DNA of 23,549 bases from a virus. Lineage: Duplodnaviria; Heunggongvirae; Uroviricota; Caudoviricetes. The translations under genes and the position numbers were made by a program. Below, piece by piece: positions 771 to 22,168 of the stretch; position 1 is the stretch's first letter; each line of letters opens with the position of its first letter. The DNA lies in IMG/VR virus record IMGVR_UViG_3300044640_000771; one strand, 5' to 3'. The notes under the pieces were generated by a model, which had not been told where the DNA came from, did not search any database, and saw only the letters and a list, made by a program, of their open reading frames with translations.

Positions 771-802
771 AAATAGCCGGATAACCCGAGGGTTTCCAGC
801 CT
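771..802 (-). terminator. Hairpin after the last tRNA (possible terminator or processing site)
   Basis: GGCTGGA-AACC-CTCG-GGTT-A-TCCGGCT followed by ATTTCTATTTC. The U-tract is weak. Confidence 0.3.
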
Positions 803-805
803 TGT

Positions 806-881
806 TGGTATCTCGTGAAGGATTCAAACCTCCGACCTCTTGATTCGTAGTCAAGTATTCTTTTCACTGAATTAACGAGAT
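806..881 (-). tRNA. tRNA-Arg(ACG)
   Basis: ATCTCGT/ACGAGAT acceptor, CTTGA-CT ACG AA-TCAAG anticodon arm, encoded CCA. Confidence 0.92.
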
Positions 882-890
882 ATTGTTTGA

Positions 891-973
891 TGGTGCCCCA
901 GGGGAGACTCGAACTCCCAAAAACCTCGCTTCTAAGGCGAGTAGCTGTGCCGATTTACATAAGTCACCGGGGC
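891..973 (-). tRNA. tRNA-Leu(TAG), atypical: short variable region, enlarged D region
   Basis: GCCCCGG/CTGGGGC, CTCGC-CT TAG AA-GCGAG, GGGAG-TTCGAGT-CTCCC, A73-CCA. Variable region is only GTTTTT. Confidence 0.85.
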
Positions 974-982
974 GAAAATAAA

Positions 983-1059
983 TTTCTCAATTGACGGAGT
1001 ACCTTACCGTTAAACGTCTTTTGGCTACCGGATATTTGCCAGGGTATGAAATTGAGAAA
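983..1059 (-). ncRNA. Candidate structured ncRNA between tRNA-Ala and tRNA-Leu
   Basis: Perfect 10-bp inverted repeat TTTCTCAATT/AATTGAGAAA enclosing small internal hairpins. Confidence 0.4.
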
Positions 1060-1062
1060 ACT

Positions 1063-1139
1063 TGGTGGATACACATGGGAATCGAACCCATAACCTTTTC
1101 CTTGCAAGGGAATTGCTCTCCCAATTGAGCTAGTGACCC
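1063..1139 (-). tRNA. tRNA-Ala(TGC)
   Basis: CT TGC AA loop and G3:U70-type pair. One extra nucleotide is bulged in the 3' acceptor strand (GTG-T-ATCC). A73-CCA. Confidence 0.85.
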
Positions 1140-1189
1140 GTATTAGTTGCAGACTTTCACTGCTCCCTCTGCTTCCGCGAGGGTATATT

Positions 1190-1278
1190 TGGTGGGTTTT
1201 GAAGGAATCGAACCATTTAGCATCCACCCTGCAAAACAATGCCCAGCGGGTTACAGCCGCCGACAGGGAACAAAACCC
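1190..1278 (-). tRNA. Non-canonical tRNA-Tyr(GTA)-like gene lacking a D arm
   Basis: 8-bp acceptor GGGTTTTG/CAAAACCC, 9-nt connector, GGCGG-CT GTA AC-CCGCT, long variable arm, TTCGATT T loop, A73-CCA. Confidence 0.75.
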
Positions 1279-1338
1279 AATATTTGGACAGGCTTCTCAC
1301 CTGATCGAGAGTTCAAACCTTATTCACTCTTAACGTCT

Positions 1339-1418
1339 TGGCGATGAATATGGGGATCGAACCCATCTGTTATCCGGCGTGACAAGCCGGTGACCACAAC
1401 CAAGCGGTCCCATTCACC
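1339..1418 (-). tRNA. tRNA-Asp(GTC)
   Basis: GGTGAAT/ATTCATC, CCGGC-TT GTC AC-GCCGG, G73-CCA. Confidence 0.92.
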
Positions 1419-1422
1419 ATTG

Positions 1423-1512
1423 TTAGTTTAACTTGATCCCGTAGAGAGCAAACATTAACTGTTCTCTAACGATCTTGTTTTTATAAGTATTTCCGTATCT
1501 CAGTAATCCCAT
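1423..1512 (-). CDS. Small hypothetical protein (29 aa)
   Basis: MGLLRYGNTYKNKIVREQLMFALYGIKLN, preceded by AAAGGAG. Below the ORF-track cutoff. Confidence 0.55.
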   Translation of the reverse strand: MGLLRYGNTYKNKIVREQLMFALYGIKLN

Positions 1513-1523
1513 GACTACTCCTT

Positions 1524-1892
1524 TCAGATACTCACAAAGTAGTTACCTTGTGCATCTGTTTGCAACTTCAAACCAAGTAGAAGTTTATCAACTTGTTCGA
1601 ACTTTGTCAATACCTTGTTTGGACCGAATTTAGCCTTAAGCCAAGCGTTGATCTTAGGGATCAAATATTCTCTGATGTAAACTAGCATATCTGTATATTG
1701 ACCTCCACGAGTATCAAAGGCATCATCAAGAGTAGCTACTGAAACCCAAGTTGAACCTTGCTTTTCTACAATCATGACAAACTGGATACCAGCTACGTCT
1801 CTGCACTTGATTCCCCAGGTTACACCGTCGATTGTAGCCTGAAAATCTGCAGCTGTCATTACGATTGAATCACCTGCTGTTTGTACTGTCAT
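1524..1892 (-). CDS. Hypothetical protein
   Basis: 122 aa ORF with AAGGAG SD that fills the gap between tRNA genes. Confidence 0.75.
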   Translation of the reverse strand: MTVQTAGDSIVMTAADFQATIDGVTWGIKCRDVAGIQFVMIVEKQGSTWVSVATLDDAFDTRGGQYTDMLVYIREYLIPKINAWLKAKFGPNKVLTKFEQVDKLLLGLKLQTDAQGNYFVSI

Positions 1893-1907
1893 GTTGTACT
1901 CCTTATT

Positions 1908-1982
1908 TGGCGTTCCCCCAAGGATTCGAACCCTGACCGCATGGGTTTGGAGCCCAGCATCATGCCGTTAGAACAGAGAAAC
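1908..1982 (-). tRNA. tRNA-Trp(CCA)
   Basis: GTTTCTC/GGGGAAC, TGGG-CT CCA AA-CCCA, G73-CCA. Confidence 0.9.
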
Positions 1983-1990
1983 ATTGTTTG

Positions 1991-2080
1991 TGGCGGGTAA
2001 TGTAGGATTCGAACCTACGGAACCATTGCTGATTCTAAAGGTTAGCAACCTTCTGCAATCGGCCTCTCTGCCAATTACCC
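1991..2080 (-). tRNA. tRNA-Ser(GCT)
   Basis: GGGTAAT/ATTACCC, GAAGG-TT GCT AA-CCTTT, long variable arm, G73-CCA. Confidence 0.93.
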
Positions 2081-2086
2081 TTATAG

Positions 2087-2173
2087 TTTTCCGTGTTCTA
2101 CCACTAAACTACCTACCAGCCCTTTTTATCGTTATGGTCATTGGGGAGGGGTCGAACCTCCGTCCGGAATTTG
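2087..2173 (-). pseudogene. Two tRNA halves in 3'-then-5' order
   Basis: 3' half GCAAA-TTCCG-GAC-GGAGG-TTCGACC-CCTCC-CCAATGA-CCA (2135-2174), then 5' half TGGTAGG-TA-GTTT-AGTGGTA-GAAC-A-CGGAA (2088-2118). Confidence 0.6.
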
Positions 2174-2212
2174 CTTCGGTGCTTTACCTAACTAGTAAAG
2201 CGAATTTGGTGC
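2173..2212. repeat. 40-bp spacer repeat, copy 1
   Basis: 38/40 identical to 3875-3914. Contains hairpin GCTTTAC-TAGTTAG-GTAAAGC on the minus strand. Confidence 0.9.
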
Positions 2213-2282
2213 CAAGAGAAGGATTTGAACCTCCCACGCAAACCTTTTCAGGGTTCCGCTCTACCAGATGAGCTATCTCGGC
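2207..2282 (-). tRNA. tRNA-Phe(GAA)
   Basis: GCCGAGA/TCTTGGC, GAACC-CT GAA AA-GGTTT, A73-CCA. Confidence 0.93.
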
Positions 2283-2294
2283 ATTTATTTGTTC

Positions 2295-2373
2295 TGGCAC
2301 CGTACCGAGGAATCGAACCCCGCTATCCATTGATTAACAGTCAAGCCCATGCGCCTTGCTCGGGTTCTACGGT
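2295..2373 (-). tRNA. tRNA-Asn(GTT)
   Basis: ACCGTA/TACGGT acceptor, TTGA-CT GTT AA-TCAA, G73-CCA. Confidence 0.88.
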
Positions 2374-2375
2374 AT

Positions 2376-2466
2376 TGCTTATGACAGGCAGTGCAACCAA
2401 TTACACTATCCAAAGATAAGATTTTTAGTTTTATCTAGGGCACGGTTTCGAACCGAATCTTCCTGT
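2376..2466 (-). pseudogene. Degenerate tRNA fragments (3'-half remnant followed by 5'-half remnant)
   Basis: CGG-TTCGAAA-CCG T-arm remnant at about 2435-2466. D-arm remnant TA-GTGT-AATTGGTT-GCAC-TGCCTGTCATAAGC at about 2377-2418. Confidence 0.45.
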
Positions 2467-2474
2467 ACTGAATT

Positions 2475-2550
2475 TGGTACCCTCATCGGGGATCGAACCC
2501 GACTCTTATCCTTGAAAGGGATGTGTTCTAACCTACTAAACTACAAGGGC
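2475..2550 (-). tRNA. tRNA-Glu(TTC)
   Basis: GCCCTTG/TGAGGGT, ATCC-CT TTC AA-GGAT, CCA. Confidence 0.92.
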
Positions 2551-2554
2551 ATTA

Positions 2555-2815
2555 TCACATCATCAGCGCGTAGTACCCAAGGGCACCTAAACCTACGCCG
2601 ACAAAAGAAACTACAATATCTTGTAAAGAGAATGTCCCTTTACCTAGGAGTCCATCATACACTACATCTTTCAATAGTGCAAGTGTAACTCCTGCAATTA
2701 CTCCATACAGGAGAACCTGTGAAAACGCAGCTACACCGAATGTAGCTACAAGACAACCAATTAGATGAAGGTTCTTATCCTTACCAATCCAACTGTCATT
2801 TGTTACGAATTTCAT
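2555..2815 (-). CDS. YfiM/DUF2279-like membrane protein
   Basis: NDSWIGKDKNLH...LLKDVVYD...GTFSLQDI..S..G matches my recollection of the YfiM pattern (NDSW-G-DK--H...KE--D...S--D). Hydrophobic helices. GGAG SD before MKFV. Confidence 0.65.
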   Translation of the reverse strand: MKFVTNDSWIGKDKNLHLIGCLVATFGVAAFSQVLLYGVIAGVTLALLKDVVYDGLLGKGTFSLQDIVVSFVGVGLGALGYYALMM

Positions 2816-2838
2816 ACAGTCTCCTGTTTGTAAAGCCA

Positions 2839-2957
2839 TTTTACAGGCTTTGTTTTGTAAAACGGTATCAAGGAGTGCATGCCCTGAATTTACTAACTTC
2901 CTCCTTGGAAGTTAACCTTAATCGCAGTCCGTAAGTCACTAATGTATGAGATTACGG
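2839..2957 (-). ncRNA. Candidate four-hairpin ncRNA in the tRNA array
   Basis: Stems at 2929-2957, 2894-2914, 2868-2887 and 2839-2862 fill the spacer between tRNA-fMet and the YfiM-like gene. Confidence 0.35.
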
Positions 2958-2962
2958 TCATT

Positions 2963-3040
2963 TGGTTGCGAAGGTCGGATTCGAACCGACGATGGGTGGG
3001 ATATGAGCCCACTGCTTTAGTCCACCTAAGCTACCTCGCA
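2963..3040 (-). tRNA. tRNA-Met(CAT), initiator-like
   Basis: CT CAT AT loop, three consecutive G-C pairs (GTGGG/CCCAC) in the anticodon stem, TGCGAGG/CTTCGCA acceptor with a weak U1-A72 pair. Confidence 0.88.
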
Positions 3041-3041
3041 T

Positions 3042-3164
3042 TTATTCTTGCGTAATCCTGCGCAAATCTCTTTCGAACTTACGCATGTTACGTCTTCCTC
3101 TGTATTTTGAGCTGAAATCGGCTTCATTCCAGATATCATTGTATTTTAGTCTGTTATCTTTCAT
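3042..3164 (-). CDS. Small basic hypothetical protein (40 aa)
   Basis: MKDNRLKYNDIWNEADFSSKYRGRRNMRKFERDLRRITQE with GGAG SD. Overlaps the stop of the upstream gene (ATGA). Confidence 0.6.
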   Translation of the reverse strand: MKDNRLKYNDIWNEADFSSKYRGRRNMRKFERDLRRITQE

Positions 3165-3439
3165 TTGTCAACTCCATCAAATAATCTTTCTCTGCTTAGA
3201 CAATAAGAGATTTCTTCTAAGTCGAAATCTTTCAAGTCTAATATTACACAGCAATGACAGGTTTTACCCATTACTGAAAACTTATCTTTGTAATGAATAA
3301 ACTGGTAAAGATCATAGTCAGTTTCAATTTGAAACGTTCTATTTCTTATAACCGGATTATGTTGTGTCAATTCTACTGTTGTTTGTTGAAACTTGTCAAC
3401 TAGAAGTTTTCGATCTTTTGCAACAACTAGAAAAATCAT
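3161..3439 (-). CDS. Hypothetical protein
   Basis: 92 aa ORF with AAGGAG SD. Confidence 0.7.
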   Translation of the reverse strand: MIFLVVAKDRKLLVDKFQQTTVELTQHNPVIRNRTFQIETDYDLYQFIHYKDKFSVMGKTCHCCVILDLKDFDLEEISYCLSRERLFDGVDK

Positions 3440-3454
3440 AAAACTCCTTTATTC

Positions 3455-3530
3455 TGGCAGGGGATGCTGGATTCGAACCAGCGACACCTGGAGTCAAAGT
3501 CCAGTGCTCTACCAACTGAGCTAACCCCCA
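3455..3530 (-). tRNA. tRNA-Gln(TTG)
   Basis: CTGGA-CT TTG AC-TCCAG, unpaired 1:72 position typical of Gln, G73-CCA. Confidence 0.93.
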
Positions 3531-3542
3531 ACTGAAACTGAA

Positions 3543-3616
3543 TTATACAACCTTTACTAAGTCAGCGCAAGGCTCTCCTGCAATTCGAAACGACTCAACT
3601 GTTTCTTGTTGTATAA
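3543..3616 (-). ncRNA. Candidate structured ncRNA between tRNA-Cys and tRNA-Gln
   Basis: 9-bp closing stem TTATACAAC/GTTGTATAA with internal hairpins GAAAC/GTTTC and GCAGG/CCTTGC. Confidence 0.4.
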
Positions 3617-3618
3617 AT

Positions 3619-3693
3619 TGGATACTTTAGTCGGAATCGAACCGACCTACGAGGATTTGCAATCCCCTGCCTAAACCACTCGACCATAAAGTA
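3619..3693 (-). tRNA. tRNA-Cys(GCA)
   Basis: TACTTTA/TAAAGTA, GGGGA-TT GCA AA-TCCTC, U73-CCA. Confidence 0.92.
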
Positions 3694-3696
3694 GTT

Positions 3697-3773
3697 TGGT
3701 AGTCAGTGAGGGATTTGAACCCACTATCTTCGCCTTATCAAGACGTTGCTTATGCCACTTAAGCTTCCCGACC
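3697..3773 (-). tRNA. tRNA-Ile(GAT)
   Basis: CGTC-TT GAT AA-GGCG. Several wobble or mismatch pairs in the acceptor and T stems. A73-CCA. Confidence 0.8.
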
Positions 3774-3785
3774 GTTGTAAATATT

Positions 3786-3876
3786 TGGTGCTCCCTGTAG
3801 GATTCGAACCTACGATGTTACTTTCGTTATTCCTGCTTACAAGGCAGGTGCAATCGACCAACTATGCGAAAAGAGC
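3786..3876 (-). tRNA. tRNA-Thr(TGT) with an 18-nt variable arm
   Basis: GCTCTTT/AGGGAGC, CCTGC-CT TGT AA-GCAGG, variable region AATAACGAAAGTAACATC, GTAGG-TTCGAAT-CCTAC. Confidence 0.85.
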
Positions 3877-3914
3877 TTCGGTGCTTTACCTAACTAGCAA
3901 AGCGAAATTGGTGC
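3875..3914. repeat. 40-bp spacer repeat, copy 2
   Basis: 38/40 identical to 2173-2212. Confidence 0.9.
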
Positions 3915-3984
3915 ATACTGTAGGATTCGAACCTACCTCGATCATCTTGTAAGGATGGTGACTAAACCAATCATCCAAGTATGC
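3909..3984 (-). tRNA. tRNA-Val(TAC)
   Basis: GCATACT/AGTATGC, CATC-CT TAC AA-GATG, A73-CCA. Confidence 0.92.
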
Positions 3985-3990
3985 TTTATC

Positions 3991-4021
3991 TGGAGCGTTT
4001 CGCAGAAACCTCTGCGAAAGC
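3991..4021 (-). ncRNA. CCA-terminated minihelix with a Gly-type end
   Basis: GC-TTTCGCAGA-GGTT-TCTGCGAAA-C-GC-T-CCA. Confidence 0.4.
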
Positions 4022-4030
4022 TTTGCTTTC

Positions 4031-4106
4031 TGGAGCGTCCAGAGGGAATCGAACCCTACCCTGCACGGCTTGGAAGGCCGGCGACACAACCCGTGTGCTT
4101 GGAAGC
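4031..4106 (-). tRNA. tRNA-Gly(TCC)
   Basis: CGGC-CT TCC AA-GCCG, U73-CCA, one acceptor mismatch. Confidence 0.88.
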
Positions 4107-4116
4107 ATTTGTATCT

Positions 4117-4144
4117 ATTATAGCATGACATTCTTAGTTGTCAA
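4117..4144 (-). promoter_or_regulatory. Sigma70-type promoter inside the tRNA array
   Basis: TTGACA-16 nt-TATAAT with TG extension, about 10 nt upstream of tRNA-Gly. Confidence 0.8.
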
Positions 4145-4149
4145 GCTAT

Positions 4150-4240
4150 ACATGCCTCGCCTGGAATTAAATTCCGTCCGCTGCTTGCTCGGCAATACCT
4201 GCAGTTGTTGCGACCCTTCTTCCTCTGCAGGATTGTATTC
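4150..4240 (-). ncRNA. Structured spacer, candidate ncRNA
   Basis: CCTGCAG/CTGCAGG stem (4198-4231), GGAAT/ATTCC hairpin (4163-4175), TTGCC/GGCGA closing pairs. Confidence 0.3.
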
Positions 4241-4241
4241 T

Positions 4242-4315
4242 TGGGGTGACTTCGGGGATCGAACCCTGTTCTTCTGATTCACAGTCAGGGGCATTACCAT
4301 ATATGCTAAAGTCAC
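4242..4315 (-). tRNA. tRNA-His(GTG), lacks encoded G-1
   Basis: GTGACTT/AAGTCAC, CTGA-CT GTG AA-TCAG, C73-CCA. Position -1 is A. The T arm is one nucleotide short. Confidence 0.8.
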
Positions 4316-4644
4316 TACTGAACATCGATGTACTCGATAGGCATCCCGTTCTCTTCAGCAAATCTAATCTCTGCTTGAACTCCACCTGACTCTTTCCATC
4401 CATCAAACTTAAGAACAACTAGTTTATCACATCGTTGCATAAACATCAAGCAGAAGTTTTTCCAGAAATCCCAATCTGTTCCTAGATTAGCGTGATGCTG
4501 ACACGCATAATGATGTACTAATCCTGTAATTGTATAACTACCAGGATTGTCTAGCATGTACCTTCCACAAATATTAGCAATTCTATCCATTAGTTCTGCT
4601 TTATTCTTTACATTTGAATAAGGTGCTGCTACATATACAATCAT
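4315..4644 (-). CDS. DUF1937 family protein (nucleoside deoxyribosyltransferase-like fold)
   Basis: YVAAPYS...W..FC...CDKLVVLKFDGWKESGGVQAEIRFAEENGMPI pattern. Confidence 0.7.
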   Translation of the reverse strand: MIVYVAAPYSNVKNKAELMDRIANICGRYMLDNPGSYTITGLVHHYACQHHANLGTDWDFWKNFCLMFMQRCDKLVVLKFDGWKESGGVQAEIRFAEENGMPIEYIDVQ

Positions 4645-4658
4645 TATACCTCCTGTTT

Positions 4659-4745
4659 TGGCGGGGCGTAAAGGAATCGAACCATCAGCTATCTCTAACT
4701 GCCCTAGCTTTCAAGGCTAGTTTGTACCCATTGTAGGTACACCCC
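4659..4745 (-). tRNA. tRNA-Ser(TGA) with 8/4-type acceptor/T geometry and an abnormal D region
   Basis: GGGGTGTA/TACGCCCC, CTAGC-CT TGA AA-GCTAG, CAGTTA-GAGA-TAGCTG variable arm, ATGG-TTCGATT-CCTT, G73-CCA. Confidence 0.8.
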
Positions 4746-4759
4746 ATCTTTTTATTCTT

Positions 4760-4849
4760 TGGTCTACCGGGTAGGATTCGAACCTACGAGATCCCTTCGG
4801 GCTTCTTGCTTCCAAAGCAAGCACTCTGACCAAGCTGAGTTACCGATAG
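4760..4849 (-). tRNA. tRNA-Pro(TGG) with a 17-nt variable arm
   Basis: CTATCGG/CCGGTAG, CTTGC-TT TGG AA-GCAAG, variable region AAGCCCGAAGGGATCTC, A73-CCA. Confidence 0.88.
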
Positions 4850-5069: not shown

Positions 5070-5097
5070 ATTGTAGCACACAATCTCAGGAAGTCAA
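5070..5097 (-). promoter_or_regulatory. Sigma70-type promoter of the tRNA operon
   Basis: TTGACT-16 nt-TACAAT with TG extension. The -35 overlaps the HNH gene end. Confidence 0.7.
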
Positions 5098-5577
5098 TAC
5101 GTATGCACTAATAAATTTTATGTATCGAAGTTGCATCTTCAAGAGCTTCCTCTTCGCAACGGTGATATCCTGGATCACTTCCTTCTTGACTCTGCTATCT
5201 TGTCTGTACTCTAGAACATAGCTGAATGCATCCGTTGGATGTGGAATCAGTCGTAGAGCACCTGACAAGTTCTTCATTGCTTCCATTATCTTAGCTTTAG
5301 TCTTCTTAGGAAGCAAGCACAAGTTGTTGATCTTGTTGTTCTTTTCATCTAAATCCTTATGAAATACTACATGATCATCTGGTGGCACTTCCTTGTAGTA
5401 AGAGCACCAAACTAACTTGTCATATTTCATCTTAATCTTGGATTTATTGATGGTTACACTGACTGTATTCTCTTCGTCAGGTATCAGTTTACGTACTCTT
5501 TGGTTATTCTTTAGGATAAACACTTCTCCAGTAGTAGGAGAGCACTCTAAAGAGTTGAGCACATCTAAAGCTTGCAT
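5086..5577 (-). CDS. HNH endonuclease (homing-type)
   Basis: LVWCSYY..VPPDDHVVFHKDLDEKNNKINNL (HNH_3-like). Start placed at MQALDV after AAAGGAG. Confidence 0.7.
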   Translation of the reverse strand: MQALDVLNSLECSPTTGEVFILKNNQRVRKLIPDEENTVSVTINKSKIKMKYDKLVWCSYYKEVPPDDHVVFHKDLDEKNNKINNLCLLPKKTKAKIMEAMKNLSGALRLIPHPTDAFSYVLEYRQDSRVKKEVIQDITVAKRKLLKMQLRYIKFISAYVLTS

Positions 5578-5720
5578 ATCTTCTCCTTTGAAGTCTGTAA
5601 TAACAGAGAGCACAACTAAATTCTATTTGGTGTATACCGATGATGCAACCTGCGTTAGCAAGTTACAGGATCGGAGAGCACACAAGAAATTAGATAAGCT
5701 TTCAAGTGCAGCTTATACGA

Positions 5721-6475: not shown

Positions 6476-7252
6476 ATGAAGAGAAATATGAAGACCAGGA
6501 TGGAAGTTGTAAAGAAAGAGAAGTTCACTAGAGTGCAGTTCCCTCAACTTCATCCAATGAATGACAAACAGAAAGAATTGCTAGATGCTCTCTTGCATGA
6601 ATCCCTGATTATCGCATCAGGTTCAGCCGGTACAGGTAAGACATTGCTATCCTGCTGGCATGCAGCTAAGAAGTTACATCACAGAGATATTGATAAAGTA
6701 GTGCTTCTGAGAGCTTACCAGCCTCTGGCTGGACGTAGCATCGGATTCCTACCGGGTGAGCTAGAGTCAAAGCTAATCCCATTCTATCAGCAAATGCTAG
6801 ATTACTTTGAAGATTACCTGGGTAAAGCAAGTACAGAGATTCACATCAAGAATAAGACGATTGAAATCTGCAGCCTAGAAACTATCCGAGGACGTAGCTG
6901 GGACAATGCTATCATCATCGTAGATGAAGCACAATCTCTATTCGTACCTGAAGTTCAAGCGCTGGTAACTCGCGTAGGAAAGAACTCACAATTGATCTTC
7001 TGTGGAGACGATTCAGGTGTACAGACAGACGTTAAGAATGGTATGGATGGTCTTACATATCTTAAGAAACTAATCGAGAAGTACAGAATCTCAGACACAA
7101 AGACAGTCACCTTTACTCGTGATCACATCGTTCGTAGTGGATTGACGAAAGAATTCGTTATCGCCTTCGAAGATGAAATGCAGGATGATGCTATTGGAAT
7201 GGCTATTGTTTCAACAAAGGAAATTAACAGTCAATTTAAGAAACCAAGATAA
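6476..7252 (+). CDS. phoH: PhoH family ATPase
   Basis: GSAGTGKT Walker A, GFLPGELESK, LETIRGRSW, IIVDEAQ, TRVG...CGD...Q.D. Confidence 0.93.
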   Translation: MKRNMKTRMEVVKKEKFTRVQFPQLHPMNDKQKELLDALLHESLIIASGSAGTGKTLLSCWHAAKKLHHRDIDKVVLLRAYQPLAGRSIGFLPGELESKLIPFYQQMLDYFEDYLGKASTEIHIKNKTIEICSLETIRGRSWDNAIIIVDEAQSLFVPEVQALVTRVGKNSQLIFCGDDSGVQTDVKNGMDGLTYLKKLIEKYRISDTKTVTFTRDHIVRSGLTKEFVIAFEDEMQDDAIGMAIVSTKEINSQFKKPR

Positions 7253-7255
7253 GGA

Positions 7256-7936
7256 GTGCCTATGAACTATAAAAACCGCCGAAGTGAAGATGACGAAGAT
7301 CAGACAGTAAGCACTGACAAATATCTAGGGTACTTTACCCGAAGTATCGTATCAAATTGTATTACCATTCCTATCGACGAAGGTGTACGTGAAGCACAAT
7401 ACTACAGACAAGTAACGAAAGCAATCGCTGAATCTACTGAACGTGATCAGATTGAGTTTGAAATCTCTTCTCCTGGAGGTTTACTCAACGGGTTGATTGC
7501 CTTGCTTACAGCTATGGAGAAGACTGAAGCTACTACCGTAGCACACATCAACGGTGAATGTCACTCTGCTGCCAGCATGCTTGCTCTGAGTTGTGATTCA
7601 ATTTACGTATCTCCTTATTCTACCATGCTAGTTCACTTTGTACAGTTTGGTGCAAGTGGTAAAGGTACAGACGTTCTCAGCCACGTAGAGCACATGTACA
7701 GCACATCAGAACAACTATTCCGGGATACATACAAGTATTTCCTTACAGAATCAGAAATTACTAGGTGTATCGAAGGTTTGGAGCTTTGGTTGTCTGCTGA
7801 TGATATCAGGAAACGACTAGAACGCAAGTTTGAATTGATGAATAAAGAGGTGAATAAAGCCAAGAAAGCACAGAAGAAAACGCAACCTAAGAAGGTAGCA
7901 GTCGAAGTCGAACAGGCTGAAGAAATCAAAGAATAA
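7256..7936 (+). CDS. ClpP-like protease (phage-type)
   Basis: ISSPGG, CHSAASML (nucleophile Ser) and STMLVH (His) motifs. Confidence 0.85.
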   Translation: MPMNYKNRRSEDDEDQTVSTDKYLGYFTRSIVSNCITIPIDEGVREAQYYRQVTKAIAESTERDQIEFEISSPGGLLNGLIALLTAMEKTEATTVAHINGECHSAASMLALSCDSIYVSPYSTMLVHFVQFGASGKGTDVLSHVEHMYSTSEQLFRDTYKYFLTESEITRCIEGLELWLSADDIRKRLERKFELMNKEVNKAKKAQKKTQPKKVAVEVEQAEEIKE

Positions 7937-8726: not shown

Positions 8727-9392
8727 TTAGACAGTCGCGGGTTTAATCGTTATTACCTTTGCGGCTTTGTTCTTCCCGCTTCCGTGCACGGTAAAGCCTA
8801 CGATACTGCGCCGGTCTGCCTTCTGGCACAACATACAGTCAGCACAGGTTAGCGCTTCGATATGCTCTGCTGGGCACCTAACAATGCTGCGTCCTTCTGG
8901 CGTGCGGGTTACATTCGGCGATCCTTCAGGCAGTAGGGTAACCGTGGGAAGTCCCTGCGCTGCTGCTGCATCTGCTGCCTGGGCGTTATCGGTGGACACG
9001 TTCACGGTGAACCCTGCGGAGTTACTGCGCCGGATAGCGTCAAGCATTCCAGCGGCTGCGCTGTTGTGTGTGTAGGTCCAGCCTTTGAGGTGCCGCGCTG
9101 CCTGGGTGATAGCGTCCAGCGTTGCAGCGTTGGGAATGTCCCCGGCTACATTGTGGCGGAATGCTCGGCCTTTGGGGATAGCGCGGAGTGCCTGGGCGAA
9201 GGCTTCAAGGGTGAGCGCATCGGGGTTAGCGTCCAGCTTACGCCAGTGCAAGCCCACCATGCCATACTTGGCGTAACAGCCGCTGGTCTTGAGCGGGCAC
9301 GCATCCGGGCATGAGTCGCTGCTGGTCATACTGGTTACAATCGGGCCGGTCTTCCGGTTGCTGCTCTGCTGGGTGATTTGAAAGCGTGCCAT
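8727..9392 (-). CDS. Cys-rich phage protein (DUF7227/GP88-like)
   Basis: SSNRKTGP...SCPDACPL...GCYA, FRHNVAGD, WTYTH, VNVS and RCPA...TCADCMLC...IVGF.VHG motifs. Family name from recollection. Confidence 0.65.
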   Translation of the reverse strand: MARFQITQQSSNRKTGPIVTSMTSSDSCPDACPLKTSGCYAKYGMVGLHWRKLDANPDALTLEAFAQALRAIPKGRAFRHNVAGDIPNAATLDAITQAARHLKGWTYTHNSAAAGMLDAIRRSNSAGFTVNVSTDNAQAADAAAAQGLPTVTLLPEGSPNVTRTPEGRSIVRCPAEHIEALTCADCMLCQKADRRSIVGFTVHGSGKNKAAKVITIKPATV

Positions 9393-20081: not shown

Positions 20082-20336
20082 TCAAGCATTCTTATCGTTT
20101 AGATAAGCTTCGTGTGAAGTATCTACATAGATTCCGGTAGCACCCTCAACCTCACGCTCATCTACATAATAGTTTACGTCATAGTATTTCAAGCGAGGAT
20201 TTGTCTTGTCTTCAGCAATAGTCTCTAGTTTGGCTTTTTCAGCAGCTTCAGGAGTAGCGAACACACCAAGCACACAGTCATAATTTGACTCATGTTTGAT
20301 ATACTCATTCCGAATCAACAGAAATACTTTCATCAC
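20082..20336 (-). CDS. Hypothetical protein
   Basis: KVFLL...VLGVFATPEAA pattern common in phage hypotheticals. Confidence 0.7.
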   Translation of the reverse strand: MMKVFLLIRNEYIKHESNYDCVLGVFATPEAAEKAKLETIAEDKTNPRLKYYDVNYYVDEREVEGATGIYVDTSHEAYLNDKNA

Positions 20337-20917
20337 AAATCTCCTACTCGGTTTTCACGATGTGTATCAGCAATGTAGACTTCTCGCTTATCCATGTACT
20401 GCTTGATTTCATCAAAATTCAACAGACGATGTTCACCAAATAGATTGTACACGTTGTCGATACCAACGTCAAGAATCTTACCCTTGCCTTCTGTGTACAT
20501 TCCGTGGCTATGACCATGCAGATGCCAACTACCGCGATGCTGCTGGTGCCAACTAGCAATTGGAAAGTGAAACATTACAACTTTCTGACCATCGAACTGC
20601 TTCTCAAGGTAGTCATGAGTATATACACCGTTGACACCACGCGAATACTGCTTGAAGTTATCAGAGTAATCATGGTTACCCTTGATCATGTGGATTGTAC
20701 CATTTAGGCGTTCAATTACAGCCAATGTCTTCTTCGTATCCTTAGCAAAGGAGAAATCACCCAGGTGATAAACAGTATCACCTTTCTTGACTTGCTTGTT
20801 CCAGATTTCAATCAGCCATTCTGTGTGGTTGTCTGCGTCAGTAAACAAGTGACGATTTGTGAAAGTCACAATATTGCGATGAAACCAGTGCAGGTCGCTA
20901 GTAAACCAGATATTCAT
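20333..20917 (-). CDS. Calcineurin-like metallophosphoesterase
   Basis: FTSDLHWFH, YHLGDFS, KGNHD, FHFP, HLHGHSH, LDVGID. Start MNIWF after GGAGG. Confidence 0.92.
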   Translation of the reverse strand: MNIWFTSDLHWFHRNIVTFTNRHLFTDADNHTEWLIEIWNKQVKKGDTVYHLGDFSFAKDTKKTLAVIERLNGTIHMIKGNHDYSDNFKQYSRGVNGVYTHDYLEKQFDGQKVVMFHFPIASWHQQHRGSWHLHGHSHGMYTEGKGKILDVGIDNVYNLFGEHRLLNFDEIKQYMDKREVYIADTHRENRVGDL

Positions 20918-20918
20918 A

Positions 20919-21101
20919 TTATTCCTCCAAGAAACACAGATGCCGTTTTGGTACATTAAACTCATGTCCATCATCGGCTTTTACTTTATAAAGCCCACCC
21001 TTTAATTGTCGGATTACTTCTACTGCTTGCCCAGTATAGGAATAGTAATTCTTACGCTGGGGTACGTGATCCAGTTTAGGTAAGAACAATGCAAATTGCA
21101 T
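20919..21101 (-). CDS. Small hypothetical protein (SH3-like)
   Basis: 60 aa that fills the gap between the ligase and the phosphoesterase. Confidence 0.6.
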   Translation of the reverse strand: MQFALFLPKLDHVPQRKNYYSYTGQAVEVIRQLKGGLYKVKADDGHEFNVPKRHLCFLEE

Positions 21102-21102
21102 G

Positions 21103-21978
21103 TCATCCTTTCAGTTGTTCAAGAAACTTGCGTCGATCTTGCTCGTCAGTGTCAATCCAACCTTGAGCGTTGAATTCCTTAACGACTGCAGAGACTGCAT
21201 CTTCCCACATTTCAGGCAATCCGTCAACTACCCCTTTGTTGTACATCTTTAGGGTGTTGCTTTGGGATAGTCGCATCAGCTTCTTCTTACCTACATAGTA
21301 CGGAGTCTTCAACTTGCAGCATTGCATGTTGCTATCATACAACATGAAACCTTCGCCGCGATCAGTCTTCGCAAGTTTAATTGCAGCAGAAAGAGTCATA
21401 ACGTCAACGAAATGACCGACAGGAACATATTCTCCTGGTTCATAAAACTTCGAATTGAAAGGCCCTTGACGATAACCAAGGTAATGAGAACCGAATTTTT
21501 CCTGCACGATGTGAGGGTCTTGCGGCACACATATTTCGAATAGCCAAGTACGCCCGTCATCCCAATCATAATAATCTGGAAGGTCTCTCAGTAGGAGTTC
21601 CTTTGCCCACTCAGCGTAATCAGACTTTGTGCTACCAGTAGTACCTACAATAACTTTACCATTGCGGACAGCCAGCGTAGCCATGTAACCGTTGATCTTC
21701 TTGAATACCTTTACAGAAGTATCCAGCGGCTTATCCTTCCAGTATCCATCTTCAAGATAATTGAATGACTTCGTAGGGGCAGCAAGTACCAGTTCACCAG
21801 TGTGAATATCGTAGGTATGACCACGGCATTCCATTACTTCAGGATGCTTCTTCCACAGGTAATCGTACATAACCCGACGATGATACTTGAAGGTATCCAG
21901 ACCAAGTTCTTCGTTGCGAGAAACGGTAGCAAGCTTCTGCTTGACTAGGTTCAACTGTTGTTCGTATGTAAGCAGCAT
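21103..21978 (-). CDS. RNA ligase, T4 Rnl1-like
   Basis: ECRG, TKSFNY, KKINGYM (motif I), TWLFEI, EGFM, KLKTPYY. Start MLLTYE after AAAGGA. Confidence 0.88.
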   Translation of the reverse strand: MLLTYEQQLNLVKQKLATVSRNEELGLDTFKYHRRVMYDYLWKKHPEVMECRGHTYDIHTGELVLAAPTKSFNYLEDGYWKDKPLDTSVKVFKKINGYMATLAVRNGKVIVGTTGSTKSDYAEWAKELLLRDLPDYYDWDDGRTWLFEICVPQDPHIVQEKFGSHYLGYRQGPFNSKFYEPGEYVPVGHFVDVMTLSAAIKLAKTDRGEGFMLYDSNMQCCKLKTPYYVGKKKLMRLSQSNTLKMYNKGVVDGLPEMWEDAVSAVVKEFNAQGWIDTDEQDRRKFLEQLKG

Positions 21979-21979
21979 G

Positions 21980-22168
21980 TTAGTCCTTTGTTGGTCGCTT
22001 TTCCAGTGACAGTTCTTCATTTGATCCGGCGGATTTTGTTCTACCTGAATGGGCGTACCAAAGCCCTCCACTGAAGATGGGTCGATCTTCACACCACCAC
22101 CACATACCATCCTCGTCTTTAGCAATGTAGTTTGCCCATTCAGGTGCAAAATCCCAGGAAGGTTTCAT
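21980..22168 (-). CDS. Conserved phage hypothetical protein
   Basis: WDFAPEWANYIAKDEDG.WWW....P...SLEKRP. Confidence 0.75.
   Translation of the reverse strand: MKPSWDFAPEWANYIAKDEDGMWWWCEDRPIFSGGLWYAHSGRTKSAGSNEELSLEKRPTKD

Follow-up and report, generated by a model that had tools for sequence, protein, structure and literature searches.

A Family of Phage tRNA-Tyr(GUA)-Like Genes in Which a Variable-Arm Strand Is Predicted To Build the D-Stem Position

A tRNA-Tyr(GUA)-like gene in a phage tRNA cluster

The stretch of viral DNA analyzed here, IMG/VR record IMGVR_UViG_3300044640_000771 (Caudoviricetes), is 23,549 nucleotides (nt) long and is referred to below, at its full length, as the window. 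Its sequence is contained in lake-water DNA runs. A tRNA cluster occupies positions 806 to 4849 of the minus strand, in which ARAGORN identifies 15 tRNAs and Rfam one more. Within this cluster, minus-strand positions 1190 to 1278 encode an 89-nt tRNA-Tyr(GUA)-like RNA, whose letters were checked directly and which is the subject of this report. A first-pass annotation, made from the sequence, had read this gene as a tRNA-Tyr(GUA) without a D arm, the missing arm perhaps being replaced by a pseudoknot with the loop of the variable arm. Its letter-by-letter reading matches ours exactly, and its overall observation is confirmed with strong comparative evidence. The gene, its leader, and its parts in 5' to 3' order are as follows, lengths of helices being given in base pairs (bp).

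1190-1278, minus strand: whole gene, encoded CCA included; covariance model R1, 91.5 bits, E = 3.4e-20
1279-1308, minus strand: 5' leader, 30 nt, with a small hairpin (CAGG..CCUG); moves with the gene; the leader motif occurs once in the window
1271-1278, minus strand: 5' strand of the acceptor stem, 8 nt, GGGUUUUG; 8 bp with 1194-1201
1269-1270, minus strand: UU connector from the acceptor stem to helix H2; T in at least 90% in both alignment columns
1263-1268, minus strand: 5' strand of H2, CCCUGU; partner of 1227-1232; abuts the anticodon stem with zero spacer
1257-1262, minus strand: 5' strand of the anticodon stem; 6 bp with 1244-1249
1250-1256, minus strand: anticodon loop CUGUAAC, with the anticodon GUA at 1252-1254; CTGTAA invariant in the alignment
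1244-1249, minus strand: 3' strand of the anticodon stem; partner of 1257-1262
1239-1243, minus strand: 5' strand of H4 (the variable-arm stem), GGCAU; partner of 1219-1223; abuts the anticodon stem
1233-1238, minus strand: loop L2, UGUUUU, between the 5' strand of H4 and the 3' strand of H2; sequence variable
1227-1232, minus strand: 3' strand of H2, GCAGGG, within the variable-arm loop; partner of 1263-1268
1224-1226, minus strand: UGG; GG invariant in the alignment; candidate equivalent of G18-G19, docking on the T loop
1219-1223, minus strand: 3' strand of H4, AUGCU; partner of 1239-1243
1202-1216, minus strand: T arm, with stem AUGG (1213-1216)/CCUU (1202-1205) and loop UUCGAUU (1206-1212)
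1194-1201, minus strand: 3' strand of the acceptor stem, CAAAACCC; partner of 1271-1278
1190-1193, minus strand: discriminator A73 (1193) and encoded CCA (1190-1192)

A D hairpin is absent, only 8 nt (UU plus CCCUGU) lying between the acceptor and anticodon stems. Along the chain, the 5' strand of H2 is followed by the anticodon arm, the 5' strand of H4, the 3' strand of H2, and the 3' strand of H4. As the strands are interleaved, H2 and H4 cross, which is the pseudoknot proposed in the first-pass annotation. Directly after AUGCU, AA precedes the T arm. The acceptor and T stems are split 8/4 rather than 7/5, with the 12-bp branch kept. The T stem had been called bulged and is better described as 4 bp (A-U, U-U, G-C, and G-C), the mismatch column being A-U or U-A in most relatives. 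With 5 bp, the window copy has the longest H4 in the family set described below and is otherwise an intact, typical member.

The gene is not recognized by tRNA finders. ARAGORN leaves 1190-1278 uncalled in its default, relaxed-threshold, intron, and mitochondrial modes, with no D arm in any of them, and among the family loci its default calls overlap the odd gene in 2 of 117. The Rfam tRNA model RF00005 (gathering threshold, 29 bits) has no match at 1190-1278, E-value mode included; the best Rfam match is tRNA-Sec (RF01852), at 26.6 bits versus a gathering score of 47, and Rfam 15 holds no model for a pseudoknotted tRNA-Tyr. Parts of the RF00005 type are otherwise present, namely, the acceptor stem, a 7-nt anticodon loop, a TTCRA T loop, the discriminator, and CCA, and the stems covary. 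A tRNA-Sec is rejected by the anticodon, which is GUA and not UCA, and an intron-containing or split tRNA is likewise rejected, since no removal of a segment restores a canonical tRNA.

The minimum free energy fold of the window RNA pairs CCCUGU with GCAGGG, contiguous with the anticodon stem. In nested energy evaluations, the RNA reaches -26.3 kcal/mol with H2 and -22.8 kcal/mol with H4, gains of 7.0 and 3.5 kcal/mol, respectively. The fold is no more stable than that of shuffled sequences (z = -0.42), so that one sequence alone proves nothing and a chance match was possible until comparative data were at hand.

Helix covariation in the homologue family

Near-identical copies of the gene were found in two viral contigs; in L003, there is one A to G change, by which the acceptor pair is kept as U-G. 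The first diverged members (L146 and L151) came from scans anchored on the T arm and, in metagenomes, on the anticodon arm, and by eye compensatory changes are already apparent in their anticodon stem and in both CCCUGU/GCAGGG and GGCAU/AUGCU. The bulk of the family came from two looser patterns, and another, gapped pattern matched three longer members. The resulting set comprises at least 117 loci and at least 80 distinct sequences of 86 to 92 nt among the matches listed, in part, by both final pattern scans; counts out of 80 or 117 refer to this collected set. All collected loci are viral or metagenomic except for two contigs from bacterial genome bins. The first-pass guess that undescribed related genes exist in other phages was right. 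GUA was fixed by most of the search patterns; it is also found in all 24 loci from a pattern without a fixed anticodon. The pattern AGGGTGG..GGTTCGATTCC fixes neither the anticodon nor the 5' strand, and every family member retrieved with it has CUGUAA and either CCCU or CCUU.

Pairs were counted on an 80-sequence MAFFT alignment (A1), with shuffles and slid partner columns as controls. Over all helices, 94.7% of cells are paired in the 80 homologues versus 75.4% in shuffles, and the covariation score is 0.530 versus 0.153, with 0 of 500 shuffles as high. When the partners are slid by 1 to 3 columns, pairing falls to 38 to 58%. Taken together, this comparative evidence rules out chance.

The acceptor stem (8 bp) is paired in 99.8% of cells, with all 8 pairs varying on both sides; its 8th pair is G-C in 73 sequences, A-U in 4, U-G in 2, and C-G in 1. 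The anticodon stem (6 bp) is paired in 99.2% of cells, and 5 of its 6 pairs vary on both sides. Covariation of CCCTG/CAGGG had been named in the first-pass annotation as a check to make, and it has now been run: H2 (CCCURY/RYAGGG; 6 bp) is paired in 100% of cells in the 80 sequences, and its two variable pairs, 15:50 and 16:49, covary. Pair 15:50 is A-U in 46 sequences, G-C in 29, U-A in 2, and C-G in 1, plus two wobbles, while pair 16:49 is C-G in 42, U-G in 31, and U-A in 7. The four inner pairs are nearly constant, partly because the search patterns required them. A covariance model from which H2 was left out retrieved a bacterial member (L453) that reads CCUUCC/GGAAGG, with a compensatory change from C-G to U-A at 13:52.

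As aligned, H4 (3 core pairs) is paired in 72.9% of cells, with all 3 pairs varying on both sides. This value is an underestimate, since approximately 30 rows, those with a 3-nt linker before the T stem, are off register by one column in both the MAFFT alignment and the covariance-model alignment that includes H4. Re-registered by script, H4 has 3 to 5 bp in every sequence, and its second pair takes all four Watson-Crick types (C-G in 44, G-C in 22, A-U in 6, and U-A in 6, with U-G in 2). Its mean length is 3.55 bp versus 2.56 ± 0.09 bp when the 3' partners are permuted among sequences, a difference of approximately 11 standard deviations. The T stem (4 bp) is paired in 85.9% of cells, pairs 69:79 and 70:78 being formed in 80 of 80 sequences and pair 68:80 being A-U in 43, U-A in 20, and U-U in 15.

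On a tree from the other columns, parsimony requires a minimum of 18 state changes for each of two pairs, 15:50 and the second pair of H4; the tree was built on few columns and the number is rough, but the variation at both places is clearly more than one inherited event. RNAalifold independently predicts an acceptor stem of 8 bp as well as H2 in continuity with the anticodon stem. Loop lengths in the family are 4 to 10 nt for L2 (mostly 6 to 8), 3 to 6 nt for the link from H2 to H4, and 2 to 3 nt for the linker to the T stem. Covariation across the family thus backs both the lack of a D hairpin and the 8-bp acceptor stem noted at first pass, and that of H2 and H4 backs a pseudoknot in which the loop of the variable-arm stem is paired with the 5' connector.

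A blastn search with the window gene and two family representatives against 50,697 GenBank phage records gave no match, distant members being beyond its sensitivity. The pattern GGGTTTTGTT..CTGTAA and an 18-nt leader motif returned only chance matches and near-identical copies. At approximately 7200 to 7310 (plus strand) of contig L209, there is a similar CCCUUC..GGAAGGGUGG motif with a T arm and CCA, in which the anticodon region is different and enlarged; this RNA may belong to a related, non-Tyr tRNA-like family.

Proposed core, function, and rival readings

In the core that we propose, H2 would stack on the anticodon stem at the position of the D stem, with the strand connections exchanged. 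Such stacking is feasible because CCCURY enters the 5' strand of the anticodon stem, and H4 leaves its 3' strand, without a spacer. CCCURY, the strand coming from the acceptor stem, would replace nucleotides 22 to 26, and RYAGGG, the strand from the variable loop, would replace nucleotides 10 to 13. The YGG after it would correspond to G18-G19 and reach the T loop to close the elbow; its constant GG comes directly after RYAGGG, as G18-G19 of the cloverleaf likewise follow the 5' strand of the D stem. The Y that precedes GG varies in step with nucleotide 59 of the T loop (U/U in 69 sequences, C/C in 10, and U/C in 1), with approximately five joint changes on the tree, and bacterial copies found later agree (U with U in L452 and C with C in L453). 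In canonical tRNAs, nucleotides 16, 17, 59, and 60 line one pocket beside the contacts of G18/G19 with the T loop. The covariation of Y with nucleotide 59 fits an elbow formed by GG and the T loop, in which these nucleotides would have a tertiary role. The modeled length from anticodon to elbow would also be similar, with 6 + 6 bp plus Y-G-G here and 5 + 1 + 4 bp plus core layers in the cloverleaf. We also considered, and rejected, a core in which the D loop and the 3' strand of the D stem are simply transposed: GG stands after AGGG here, unlike the order in Escherichia coli tRNA-Tyr, where GG precedes GGGA.

From sequence conservation and gene content, we consider it probable that this gene of a lake-water phage specifies a functional elongator tRNA-Tyr(GUA) whose core is not that of a cloverleaf. 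The RNA would be excised from the cluster transcript, charged by the host tyrosyl-tRNA synthetase (TyrRS), and then read UAY codons. Recognition by TyrRS would use G1-C72, A73, G34-U35-A36, and the arm that emerges after the anticodon stem. The bacterial Tyr identity noted at first pass is indeed retained across the family: GUA is present in every member, A73 in 80 of 80 sequences, and G1-C72 in 77 of 80, the window included. The other three (L245, L317, and L322) have C1-G72, a first pair typical of archaeal and eukaryotic tRNA-Tyr and not of bacterial tRNA-Tyr. The alignment shows no variation in the anticodon loop CUGUAA, in A73, or in the T loop, and most members encode CCA. A variable-arm stem of 3 to 5 bp starts directly after the anticodon stem, with its loop engaged in H2.

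Gene content points the same way. Other tRNAs lie in the same stretch at 115 of 117 loci. Of the loci, 37 have 20 or more ARAGORN tRNAs; 26 of these lack Tyr, 12 of them lacking no other amino acid, and Gly, the second most frequently absent, is lacking in 10. A second tRNA-Tyr is found neither in the window (ARAGORN and Rfam) nor in G001, the nearest of the records compared. The earlier argument for function, that the gene is the only Tyr tRNA of its set, therefore holds in the window and is much stronger across the family.

Several points weigh against this reading. The invariance of CCCU, AGGG, and GG was partly imposed by the search patterns, and the register of H4 was fitted for approximately 30 sequences. 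Covariation of H2 and of H4, each taken for itself, leaves their simultaneous formation in one molecule unproven, and with a link of only 3 to 6 nt between them, the arrangement is unlike a classical H-type pseudoknot, so that the three-dimensional structure remains a model. A separate canonical tRNA-Tyr is present at 16 of 117 loci and in the one bacterial genome checked (G002), so that the odd tRNA is not strictly required for decoding there. Expression was surveyed in the assembled contigs of four RNA-Seq-library runs (three recorded metatranscriptomes and one that is probably DNA) over window positions 800 to 2100. One low-depth soil metatranscriptome contig covers 1187-1305 with foreign flanks on both sides, and DNA carry-over is possible; transcription or processing of the gene is not demonstrated by these contigs.

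In some phage contigs (L321, 2903-2988, and L323, 6082-6165, both minus strand), a canonical tRNA-Tyr stands only 5 nt away from the pseudoknotted one, the two types making a tandem pair.

Three rival readings were weighed. In one, a tRNA-Tyr gene has lost its D arm and is decaying, and CCCUGU/GCAGGG match by chance, as rejection by tRNA finders and a single-sequence fold no better than shuffles might lead one to expect. This pseudogene is refuted by covariation, and we give it next to no credence: 80 distinct homologues show compensation in every helix and zero broken H2 pairs, the gene fills the Tyr gap in large tRNA sets, and an otherwise unrelated phage contig shares with the window, at 96.7% identity, a 121-nt block that contains it. 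In a second, H2 and H4 would be mutually exclusive, the RNA switching between an extended anticodon hairpin and a plain variable arm without ever forming both at once. Each helix does fit a nested fold, with the two energies given above, and the link from the 3' strand of H2 to that of H4 is short. Yet compensatory changes maintain both helices in the same sequences, junctions lack spacer nucleotides, and loop and linker lengths are tight within a total of 86 to 92 nt, as for one defined fold, which makes the two-state RNA very improbable.

In the remaining alternative, the RNA would be a decoy or sponge, a nondecoding tRNA-Tyr mimic that binds or distracts a host factor aimed at tRNA-Tyr, such as a PtuAB/Septu-type nuclease, and spares the real tRNA-Tyr. 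Retron-Eco7 PtuAB and Septu deplete tRNA-Tyr through cleavage of its variable arm (PMC13096335; PMC11555353). Phage tRNA-Tyr genes counter these systems by high expression or by a different variable loop, and overexpressed phage tRNA-Tyr weakens the defense (PMC11555353; PMC13096335). The canonical tRNA-Tyr genes that accompany the odd gene in the phage loci and the bacterial genome mentioned above would also suit a decoy. Against it stand conserved features that a decoy could do without, namely, a perfect anticodon loop, A73, an encoded CCA, and the 12 bp of the acceptor branch, and also the 12 nearly complete phage tRNA sets in which Tyr is otherwise the sole uncovered amino acid; we regard a decoy as unlikely.

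A decoding tRNA-Tyr, the reading that we favor, could itself have been shaped by defense. As PtuAB/Septu cuts the variable arm of tRNA-Tyr, escape by means of the rewired core, raised like the decoy at first pass, is plausible: with its variable loop buried and no D hairpin, the RNA might resist this nuclease and its relatives and still be accepted by TyrRS, EF-Tu, and the ribosome. By analogy with these systems, counterdefense is a possible but tentative explanation of the core and the guess that we prefer. If it were true, immunity would have selected for a new tRNA architecture, fully functional although not a cloverleaf, that passes from phage to phage in a small cassette.

Mobility, neighboring genes, and comparison with known systems

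Over a 121-nt block (1188-1308) that comprises the gene and its leader, the window is 96.7% identical to L003, an otherwise unrelated 34-kb phage contig. The only other match between the two is weak (117 nt, 72% identity). As this block is shared almost alone, the alignment suggests that the gene and leader make up a small mobile tRNA cassette. The window also encodes PhoH, a ClpP-like protease, thymidylate synthase, and a cell-wall hydrolase, and by PhoH (73% identity) its closest cultured relative is the freshwater Limnohabitans phage DC31. The tRNA cluster of DC31 has an ordinary annotated tRNA-Tyr, and three metagenomic PhoH relatives also carry canonical tRNA-Tyr genes and not the odd one, which indicates that the odd gene was not inherited with the phage backbone. 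Chromosomal copies in bacteria are sporadic: of 121 genomes that are related to one alphaproteobacterial bin, 3 contain the gene. The bacterial copies are L348/L449 (G002), L452 (G115), and L453 (G007), two of which were added by a covariance-model search. In G002, the copy adjoins a tRNA-Arg(ACG), and the genes around it are ordinary chromosomal ones (an oxidoreductase, a weak histidine-kinase match, and a cytochrome c).

Further unusual tRNA genes lie in the window cluster, all on the minus strand. At 891-973 there is a second tRNA-like gene missed by the finders, with a 7-bp acceptor stem (GCCCCGG/CUGGGGC), the loop CUUAGAA (UAG, Leu), a regular T arm, A73, and CCA. Approximately 25 nt without a clear D stem precede its anticodon arm, its variable region is only 6 nt, and it scores 21.1 bits with the Rfam tRNA model versus the threshold of 29. 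The tRNA-Thr(UGU) at 3786-3876 (91 nt) and the tRNA-Pro(UGG) at 4760-4849 (90 nt) have long variable regions, that of tRNA-Pro forming a stem, which is unusual for class I amino acids. The tRNA-Asp(GUC) at 1339-1418 (80 nt) has extra nucleotides at the junction of the acceptor and D stems in the ARAGORN drawing, and the tRNA-Ile(GAU) at 3700-3773 scores 40.2 bits in Rfam and is called by ARAGORN only at a lowered threshold.

A homing-endonuclease fragment (232-531) and an HNH endonuclease (5086-5613), both on the minus strand, flank or lie within the tRNA cluster, as in the tRNA regions of T4 and T5. At 20333-22149 (minus strand), a T4 Rnl1-like RNA ligase (PHROG 562, E = 2.4e-40, no Pfam match) stands beside a calcineurin-like metallophosphoesterase. 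The two may constitute an RNA repair pair, and as neighbors they give a circumstantial hint that the phage meets RNA-cutting defenses. Between 8001 and 11000, G+C content is 0.49 to 0.58 versus approximately 0.40 to 0.44 elsewhere, with a DUF7227/GP88-like open reading frame at 8727-9392; this segment may be recently acquired DNA.

Outside animal mitochondria, all tRNAs are treated as cloverleaves that possess a D hairpin. Here, in more than 100 viral contigs and a few bacterial genomes, tRNA-Tyr identity is kept in a family in which the D-stem position appears to be built from a strand of the variable arm. Full-text searches of the literature turned up no account of any tRNA that forms its D helix with the variable arm. 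If these RNAs are charged and decode, then TyrRS, RNase P, EF-Tu, and the ribosome can all work with a tRNA core of different chain topology, and phage tRNA inventories are systematically short of Tyr because finders miss the gene. In that case, genetic-code engineers would also gain a natural scaffold structurally unlike ordinary tRNAs. The family could also serve as a concrete case in which to test the arms race that sets phage tRNAs against defense nucleases aimed at tRNA-Tyr.

Among known systems, the canonical class II tRNA-Tyr(GUA) genes of E. coli (tyrT/tyrU), T5, T6, and DC31 share with this family GUA within CUGUAA, A73, G1-C72, a T loop of the GTTCRANYC type, an extra arm right after the anticodon stem, a length of approximately 85 to 90 nt, and occurrence in phage tRNA clusters. 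They differ in having a D hairpin and a 7/5 rather than an 8/4 split; the RNAs described here escape ARAGORN and RF00005, and their variable-arm loop is not free, serving instead as a strand of a D-stem-like helix.

The (8/4) tRNAs, or allo-tRNAs, are alike in a 12-bp branch split 8/4, in their presence in phage tRNA clusters, in sporadic occurrence in proteobacteria, and in partial resemblance to tRNA-Sec. They are, however, cloverleaves with a long D stem and a tetraloop and with Ser, His, Cys, or Sec identity (Mukai et al. 2017, PMC5389517), and that paper (Nucleic Acids Res 45:2776) makes no mention of tRNA-Tyr or of a pseudoknot. The phage RNA, in contrast, lacks the D hairpin and has the anticodon GUA.

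Animal mitochondrial tRNA-Ser(AGY) and other D-armless mitochondrial tRNAs also lack a D hairpin and presumably share decoding. At approximately 55 to 65 nt, such RNAs are shortened, the helix is simply lacking, and mitochondrial factors have coevolved with them, whereas the phage RNA has 89 nt and a covarying 6-bp replacement helix supplied by a distant strand, is encoded by a phage and not by an organelle genome, and must suit ordinary bacterial factors. Pseudoknot-based tRNA mimicry is found in the tRNA-like structures of the turnip yellow mosaic virus (TYMV) type at the 3' ends of plant RNA viruses, some of which are aminoacylated. There, the pseudoknot builds the acceptor arm of a nondecoding genomic 3' end, while here the RNA comes from a free-standing tRNA gene of a DNA phage, and the pseudoknot is predicted to take the place of its D arm.

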